Shown: in pieces, positions 6,172 through 6,620 of the stretch
Layout: each line of letters begins with the position of its first letter
Position numbering within the stretch: the stretch's first letter is position 1
IMG/VR virus record: IMGVR_UViG_2534681934_000014
Direction: 5' to 3' (one strand)
DNA from: a virus
Lineage: Duplodnaviria; Heunggongvirae; Uroviricota; Caudoviricetes
Length of the DNA stretch: 6,771 nucleotides
Position numbers and translations under genes: made by a program
Notes under the pieces: model-generated
What the model was told of the DNA's origin: nothing
The model's input: the letters and a program-made list of their open reading frames with translations, nothing else
Database searches by the model: none

Positions 6172-6234
6172 CTCTCGCGCCAGTTTCAGGACAAAGTTCA
6201 GCTCGCCTTCGAATGCTTTTTTGATGTTACCGAC
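6034..6234 (-). other. T-like remnant (GT chaperone -1 frame) fused in frame to H; no stop codon between T-like sequence and H
   Basis: The frame that opens after the TGA at 6235-6237 reads VGNIKKAFEGELNFVLKLAREMGRPDWRAMLAGMTSTEYADWRRFYCTHYFQDTQLDAHFSSLEAD and then runs straight into H-homologous sequence. The AMLAGMTSTEYADW.RFY.THYF motif matches my recollection of the N-terminal part of lambda gpT. Coordinates of the junction are approximate. Confidence 0.6.
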
Positions 6235-6620
6235 TCAGTCGCTTCTGCTTTACCGGTTTGTTCAGGATCGGCATCGTGCCGGTTATCCAGCATACCTGAA
6301 AGATAAAGCACCCGGTTCGTTGCCTGATTCAGTGCATCAGCAGGCCATCCCAGCATCACTTCACGGCGGATCTGCTGCATCTCTGTCTCCGGAGAGGCCA
6401 GAGTGCCTTTGAGGGAATGGGAATGCCATAGCGACATCGCCACAAGCAGGGATGCCGTTTCCAGATATCGCTGGTTAATGTGCACGACATCATGCTTCGT
6501 TGTCTCCTGTTGTTCTGCGTCTGAAACAAACTTTATATAATCAAACCGCTGCAGCGCAGACAATTCGGAAAGCGTGACGGACACACCGTTATATTCAAAT
6601 TGTTCTGTTTTCAGAAACAT
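6198..6620 (-). CDS. G: Tail assembly chaperone G, 140 aa
   Basis: Track ORF MFLKTEQFEYNGVSVTLSELSALQ...; same length and N-terminus as lambda gpG as recalled; GGAGG Shine-Dalgarno 7 nt upstream of the ATG; 13-nt gap from the V stop; acidic C-terminal region; slippery heptamer near the 3' end. Confidence 0.9.
   Translation of the reverse strand: MFLKTEQFEYNGVSVTLSELSALQRFDYIKFVSDAEQQETTKHDVVHINQRYLETASLLVAMSLWHSHSLKGTLASPETEMQQIRREVMLGWPADALNQATNRVLYLSGMLDNRHDADPEQTGKAEATESVTSKKHSKAS
6216..6222 (-). promoter_or_regulatory. Candidate programmed -1 ribosomal frameshift heptamer A_AAA_AAG near the 3' end of G
   Basis: In the G frame the minus strand reads aca TCA AAA AAG cat tcg aag gcg agc TGA; the heptamer A AAA AAG (the dnaX-type slippery sequence) lies 5 codons before the G stop. 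The -1 frame from this point (AAA AAA GCA ...) is open and is the H frame. Position is analogous to the lambda G/GT slip site G_GGA_AAG. Confidence 0.6.

Follow-up and report, generated by a model that had tools for sequence, protein, structure and literature searches.

Gene organization of the window

The stretch of DNA that we analyzed, referred to below as the window, comprises 6771 bp of the IMG/VR virus record IMGVR_UViG_2534681934_000014 (Caudoviricetes). All of its genes are located on the minus strand and follow the order V (3′ end)-G-T-H-M-L-K-I-J (start), in which the T part is a T-like reading frame. The same order is annotated in phage VT1-Sakai (AP000400) and in E. coli O157:H7 F8492 (NZ_CP038282). 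The 3′ end of the major tail gene V occupies positions 6634..6771 (minus strand), as derived from the ORF list and from the annotation of the same DNA in VT1-Sakai and O157:H7 F8492. Gene G (6620..6198, minus strand; zero frame in the ORF list) encodes a tail assembly chaperone of 140 residues and ends with a TGA at 6200..6198. The G product belongs to the lambda G family, as it matches the NCBIfam model TIGR01674 (phage_lambda_G) with 118.6 bits at a cutoff of 74.45, and Pfam PF06894 (Phage_TAC_2) with an E-value of 6e-35. As in lambda-type G/G-T systems, G sits between the major tail gene V and the tape measure gene.

The region downstream of the end of G differs from that of an ordinary lambdoid tail module. 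The -1 frame contains only the first 55 codons of the T extension, AFEGELNFVLKLAREMGRPDWRAMLAGMTSTEYADWRRFYCTHYFQDTQLDAHFS, at 6052..6216 (minus strand). This part, named T′ here, matches positions 1-55 of the 111 positions of the NCBIfam profile TIGR01715 (phage_lam_T) with 93.5 bits, after which the frame enters tape-measure domains. The remainder of the frame, H′ (3532..6051, minus strand), is a tape measure gene without a ribosome-binding site and start codon of its own; the first ~31 codons are missing as well, and the gene is continuous with the T frame. Its product contains the Pfam domains TMP_2 and Tape_meas_lam_C and matches NCBIfam TIGR01541 with 355 bits.

Gene I (1757..1179, minus strand), encoding a tail assembly protein, is also affected. 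Compared with a 99.7%-identical O157 prophage it contains two 1-bp indels in homopolymer runs, G4 to G3 near position 1572 and A5 to A6 near position 1378. The two indels compensate each other, but the 194 nt between them are out of frame, which creates an internal stop. Both indel variants are absent from IMG/VR. They reflect either pseudogenization or homopolymer sequencing errors.

The heptamer at the 3′ end of gene G

On the minus strand, the 3′ end of G reads GTA ACA TCA AAA AAG CAT TCG AAG GCG AGC TGA. It contains the slippery heptamer A_AAA_AAG at 6222..6216 (minus strand), recognized from the sequence and from the comparison with relatives. The zero-frame reading is TCA AAA AAG, and the heptamer encodes Lys-Lys in both frames. 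The heptamer starts with the last base of a zero-frame codon, so that the X_XXY_YYZ phase is correct, and it is followed by five sense codons and then by the TGA of G. A first-pass annotation of this DNA, made from the letters alone, had reported an A_AAA_AAG heptamer in the position of lambda's G_GGA_AAG, and its coordinates, phase and spacing proved to be right. The same annotation had described the -1 frame as the only open frame leading downstream. The -1 frame is indeed open over 894 codons, beginning shortly before the heptamer and reaching the stop of the tape-measure ORF at 3532, but the third frame is open as well, for about 70 codons, and it has no homologues.

The window contains two copies of AAAAAAG against 0.73 expected, which is not above chance since 35 of 200 shuffled sequences reach two copies; what is above chance is the phase, the position and the conservation of the heptamer in G. 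The only other AAAAAAG of the window lies at 1096..1090 (minus strand), in the spacer of ~240 bp between I and J, and no ORF context suggesting recoding is present there.

Conservation was analyzed in a sample of 80 IMG/VR loci encoding relatives of G, together with three annotated relatives. Seventy of these loci, namely those with a locatable G start and a G product at least 89% identical to that of the window, are counted as close relatives. In all 70, A_AAA_AAG is located exactly five codons before the G stop, as the first-pass annotation had stated for the window, and the -1 frame extends beyond the G stop for another 96-147 codons without interruption (in one locus the contig ends within it). 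Eight relatives whose G products are 43-49% identical, and also lambda, contain G_GGA_AAG at the same codon position. Thus, as in lambda-type G/G-T systems, an in-phase, conserved X_XXY_YYZ heptamer is present a few codons before the G stop. The replacement of one top-class heptamer by another, at a fixed position and before a frame without a start codon, is the signature of the programmed G/G-T -1 frameshift. Judged from these sequence comparisons, A_AAA_AAG at 6222..6216 is the canonical, conserved G/G-T -1 frameshift site of the very common O157-type clade of lambda-like E. coli prophages. The idea of a conserved programmed frameshift, put forward in the first-pass annotation, is therefore borne out by the heptamers of the relatives and by the TIGR01674 and TIGR01715 matches.

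Could the heptamer be a coincidental pair of lysine codons without a recoding role? The unremarkable number of AAAAAAG copies in the window would agree with this explanation. It does not account, however, for the exact phase and position in 70 out of 70 relatives, for the presence in distant relatives of another top-class slippery heptamer instead of a random sequence, or for a -1 frame that encodes a conserved protein family without a start of its own. We attach practically no probability to it, and on the conservation pattern it appears to be effectively refuted already. Productive transcriptional slippage requires runs of about nine or more identical bases, and slippage of this type on the A6 run was rejected because the run is too short. 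Antonov et al. (2013) cite A runs longer than seven for transcriptional slippage (PMC3711429).

The comparison of the loci, with L076-L084 set against the window, revealed a sharp mosaic boundary at the slip site. Between the A_AAA_AAG type and the G_GGA_AAG type, nucleotide identity is 53-64% on the G side and 83-98% over the first ~150 nt of T. The type of heptamer is passed on together with the G module, and the 5′ end of T is a shared, nearly invariant segment. In loci L001-L073 the T extension mainly runs for 112 or 147 codons past the G stop, and in a few cases for 96, 114 or 139. Among close relatives the C-terminal part of T is variable and the N-terminal 55 residues are nearly invariant.

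The -1 frameshift between G and T of lambda is reportedly the subject of studies by Levin, Hendrix and Casjens in 1993 and by Xu, Hendrix and Duda in 2004, 2013 and 2014. The window shares with lambda the protein families TIGR01674 and TIGR01715, the V-G-T-H order, the location of the slip site five codons before the G stop, the A-site codon AAG (tRNA-Lys) and a predicted downstream structure, and the 5′ region of T is 83% identical in nucleotides. It differs in the P-site codon, which is GGA (tRNA-Gly) in lambda and AAA (tRNA-Lys) in the window. In addition, the G proteins are only ~45% identical, and T of the window ends after 55 residues and runs into H.

Single-sequence and consensus folding predict an RNA structure at 6139..6207 (minus strand), beginning 8 nt after the heptamer. 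Its predicted outer stem of 7 bp pairs GGCGAGC (6207..6201) with GCUUGCC (6145..6139) and encloses a GC-rich hairpin (6182..6147). The single-sequence fold has a free energy of -34.4 kcal/mol (z = -3.15), and none of 200 shuffled sequences was equally stable. In a consensus fold of 11 distinct sequences, including that of lambda, the structure is retained, with no compensatory changes among its 33 pairs. The nucleotides involved also encode a highly conserved T peptide, ELNFVLKLAREMGRPDWRAMLAGM. The absence of compensatory pairs, together with this double use of the same bases, leaves the role as a stimulator unproven. A downstream structure, for which the first-pass annotation had suggested a search, is predicted by the folding calculations and is a plausible frameshift stimulator. 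The deletion junction described below lies 155 nt downstream of the frameshift cassette, predicted structure included, and leaves the cassette untouched.

The heptamer is identical to that of the tau/gamma cassette of E. coli dnaX, and further parallels are the double tRNA-Lys slippage and the downstream structure, both of them predicted for the window. That cassette contains a strong internal Shine-Dalgarno (SD) sequence ~10 nt upstream and a hairpin ~6 nt downstream of the slip site, shifts with an efficiency of ~50% and yields a shorter product. In the window, the best duplex with the anti-SD sequence in the 19 nt upstream of the heptamer amounts to -4.4 kcal/mol, a value equaled by 13% of the windows within G and hence unremarkable; the corresponding value for a dnaX-like reference sequence is -7.4 kcal/mol. 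Nor does the shift lead to an early stop, as the -1 frame continues for 894 codons in the window and for 152 in intact relatives. The label "dnaX-type", which the first-pass annotation had given to the site, therefore suits the heptamer but not its surroundings, which lack the upstream SD element and give a shifted product longer than the zero-frame product. Both tail-chaperone clusters in the study of Sharma et al. (2014) were likewise scored "N" for SD, with a structure present (PMC4066793).

A_AAA_AAG is used in a similar way in the HK97-like tail chaperone gene ECs1801 of the Sakai prophage Sp9, where it also extends a chaperone and gives a longer -1 product. ECs1801 is a member of cluster A_AAA_AAG_25, which Sharma et al. 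(2014) marked as true and which corresponds to GeneTack cluster 10 of Antonov et al. (2013) (PMC4066793, PMC3711429). We rejected this cluster as a catalogue entry for the exact site of the window, because ECs1801 is an unrelated chaperone of 124 residues (blastp E = 0.99 against G of the window). Moreover, its heptamer directly abuts the stop codon (AGA AAA AAG TAG). Since the two chaperones are unrelated, ECs1801 supports the kind of site but not this G family. In E. coli Sakai, ECs_1801 (L086 20002..20376) has a -1 extension of 102 codons after an in-phase A_AAA_AAG, so a second family of chaperones in this host has come to use the heptamer independently.

We found no published frameshift measurement in the literature for the A_AAA_AAG of this G family. 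Sharma et al. (2014) compared the complete set of 64 heptamers in E. coli reporters of otherwise identical context (PMC4066793, supplement). Frameshifting on AAAAAAG was 0.291% without a stimulator, 4.26% with the IS911 stimulators and 39.0% with the IS3 pseudoknot, and the corresponding values for GGGAAAG were 0.277%, 3.80% and 43.0%; together with CCCAAAG, these two are the most efficient motifs according to the authors (PMC4066793). For two genes of the HK97-like tail-chaperone cluster, Antonov et al. (2013) obtained 6-7% in E. coli (PMC3711429), which is of the same order as in lambda, where ~96% of the ribosomes stay in frame and ~4% shift (PMC3296357). In lambda, G binds to the tape measure and the T domain to the major tail protein, and the G:G-T ratio of ~30:1 is crucial (reviewed by Atkins et al. 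2016, PMC5009743). The first-pass annotation had suggested that the ratio of G to the fusion product might differ from that of lambda. The near-identical reporter efficiencies of both heptamers speak against this, because on these values the heptamer swap predicts no different G:G-T ratio. A modest idea concerns the modification of tRNA-Lys by thiolation, which tunes the G:G-T ratio of lambda (PMC3296357). As both slipping tRNAs are tRNA-Lys(UUU) here, the ratio in this clade might respond more strongly than that of lambda to tRNA-Lys thiolation in the host.

The junction between T and H

Pairwise comparisons revealed that the window lacks 367 bp that are present in LC645429, AP000400 and NZ_CP038282. 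The first of these, a Stx1a phage, is 99.7% identical to the window. The relative L002 contains two copies of the 10-bp sequence TCATTTTTCC, located 367 bp apart at positions 4211 and 4578 (4211-4220 and 4578-4587), and the single copy that remains in the window, at 6061..6052 (minus strand), marks the deletion junction. An HFS(G/S) peptide motif is encoded at both end-points of the deletion (...DAHFSGL in T and ...RRHFSSL in H); the lambda equivalents are ...DMHFSGL and ...RRHFSGT. The motif shared by T and H supplies the 10-bp microhomology for the deletion.

Through the deletion, T loses its C-terminal 97 residues (56-152) and its stop, and H loses its strong ribosome-binding site, its start and ~31 codons. 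As 367 equals 3n + 1, the T frame is joined to the H frame. The product predicted to result from frameshifting in the window has 135 + 894 = 1029 residues and is a G(1-135)-T(1-55)-H(32-870) chimera, which retains the G domain in full, ~96% of H and, of T, the conserved N-terminal half. A -1 frame with a complete T domain that lacks a start and ends before, or overlaps, the start of H is found in the relatives but not in the window. In the intact relative L002, the slip is followed by 152 T codons, and the stop codon of T and the ATG of H overlap. The native start of H is preceded by a strong SD sequence, GGAGGTG (-10.8 kcal/mol), which is deleted in the window.

The closest known modules are those of VT1-Sakai, CP-1639, the Stx1a- and Stx2a-converting phages and the matching O157:H7 prophages, with 97.7-99.7% nucleotide identity over the compared segment. 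They form the clade to which the window belongs and contain A_AAA_AAG and the downstream sequence as in the window. In contrast to the window, their T is complete, and their H has an SD of its own and an ATG that overlaps the T stop. The downstream partner of G is thus indeed abnormal, as the first-pass annotation had noted, but the abnormality is a private 367-bp deletion that fuses T to H and most likely not an evolved design.

The junction was searched for in several collections. At least 80% of the window is present in 636 of 5426 complete E. coli genomes, the best matches being 99.2-99.7% identical, and the best whole-window matches are always split into two pieces that span 7138 bp instead of 6771 bp. 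A 200-base query across the junction, run at an E-value threshold strict enough to admit only matches that cross it, gave no match in the 5426 genomes. This query replaced one of 70 bases whose search against E. coli genomes had come back empty, for which low-complexity filtering or word seeding was suspected to be responsible. The junction was not found in phage records, a 31-mer across it is absent from IMG/VR, and a degenerate 44-mer is absent from the GTDB species representatives and the JGI metagenomes. As a positive control, a 31-mer from the intact T side was detected in 43 IMG/VR contigs. The exact product of the 879-codon ORF that starts at the first ATG of the fused frame has no record among 153 billion gene positions. 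Two protein searches listed no homologue spanning T and H, and none of the homologues has PF06223 together with PF06791; coverage reached at most 69% of the junction query and 93-95% of the fused frame, of which the closest H proteins cover only 93-94%. As the deletion is absent from every collection searched, it is silent on any conserved arrangement. O157 genomes each contain 8-14 places with related, near-identical modules.

Translation of the fused frame and origin of the deletion

On the paradigms of lambda and dnaX, a ribosome translating the end of G would have tRNA-Lys(UUU) both in its P site, on AAA, and in its A site, on AAG. The two tRNAs would re-pair one base back on A_AAA_AA in a few per cent of the passages, a slip that the structured region from 8 nt downstream may assist, and translation would then proceed in the T frame. 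Intact relatives would make G (140 aa) and a minority of G-T (135 + 152 aa). From the copy in the window, the intact cassette would make the 1029-aa G-T′-H′ chimera, and neither a normal G-T nor a normal H. A prophage with this copy could form tails only if G-T and H were provided by co-resident lambdoid prophages; the 8-14 related places per O157 genome mean that such helper prophages are available. We consider it fairly probable that the locus consists of a genuine lambda-family G/G-T frameshift site next to a deletion lesion in a decaying prophage tail module, and that the fusion is no evolved arrangement.

Other explanations have to be weighed against a lesion. The gap and the two indels in gene I may be errors of assembly, consensus calling or cloning, in which case the real genome would have G, G-T and H in the ordinary arrangement, with an unchanged A_AAA_AAG. 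The gap and both indels are private to the window, the remainder of which is 99.7% identical to many O157 prophages; both indels are located in homopolymer runs and compensate each other 194 nt apart, which is a classic pattern of read or consensus errors, and 8-14 near-identical module copies per genome make assembly difficult. However, the ends of the gap coincide exactly with the 10-bp direct repeat, which is typical of replication slippage or illegitimate recombination in living cells (or in a clone) and not of a collapse by an assembler, and with otherwise only 13 substitutions relative to L003 the quality of the window is not generally low. An artefact is therefore possible but rather unlikely, and a lesion is favored over it, given that gaps with a repeat at their ends are what slippage and illegitimate recombination leave behind. 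The deletion is in frame, an outcome with a 1-in-3 chance of arising by accident that nevertheless leaves room for a functional chimera. In that case G-T′-H′ would be a working, covalently chaperoned tape measure whose supply is set by the frameshift rate, and tape-measure synthesis would depend entirely on programmed frameshifting. We know of no described case in which a tail-assembly chaperone and its client are translated as one fusion. A lambda tail requires only a few tape-measure molecules, and such a number could come from a highly expressed G at a frameshift rate of a few per cent. The fusion is in frame and keeps the parts of G, T and H given above, and G normally binds H (PMC5009743). 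Against this, the junction is unique among thousands of related prophages, the protein searches gave no homologue spanning T and H, the removed half of T belongs to the family profile (positions 56-111), free G-T would not be made, and the adjoining gene I is disrupted too. In addition, mature lambda tails contain neither G nor G-T, both of which have to dissociate (PMC5009743); a covalent link would not allow this. According to the review literature, the T domain recruits the major tail protein, the ratio is critical, and neither G nor G-T may stay in the tail (PMC5009743); on these grounds the chimera is unlikely to work, and we regard functional re-wiring as very improbable.

It is also improbable, though somewhat less so than a working chimera, that H′ is mainly made by internal initiation at ATG 6171, ATG 6147 or a later codon, so that the frameshift product would be a by-product and only G-T would be lacking. 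The first ATG of the fused ORF (MGRPDW...; 6169..6171, minus strand) opens the 879-aa ORF, and its equivalent is used by PGAP as the start of "T" in relatives, but on anti-SD pairing it is a weak candidate for an independent start: the pairing amounts to only -1.8 kcal/mol, compared with -10.8 kcal/mol for the start of G and for the native H start of L002, and the codon lies inside the stable predicted hairpin. ATG 6147 has an upstream GGAGA (-6.4 kcal/mol), which is however located 15 nt away and is thus too far, and the remaining in-frame starts of the fused ORF are weak or badly spaced. Besides, T of lambda is made only as G-T and has no independent start (Levin et al. 1993, summarized in PMC5009743 and PMC3296357).

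G/G-T frameshifting is textbook recoding, and A_AAA_AAG is already documented as a slip site of tail chaperones in another O157 prophage family. Accordingly, the finding matters little beyond correct annotation and implies no new control of the ratio. In relatives, "T" has been annotated, by PGAP as well as in older records, from the internal ATG (MGRPDW...) and without a ribosomal-slippage feature; examples are L003 2101..2514, L001 4101..4409 and L085 4141..4554. With G and the ATG-started "T" called as separate genes, the G-T product is missing from the protein databases for this clade. The copy in the window is better annotated as a disrupted T/H than as a tape measure of 879 residues.
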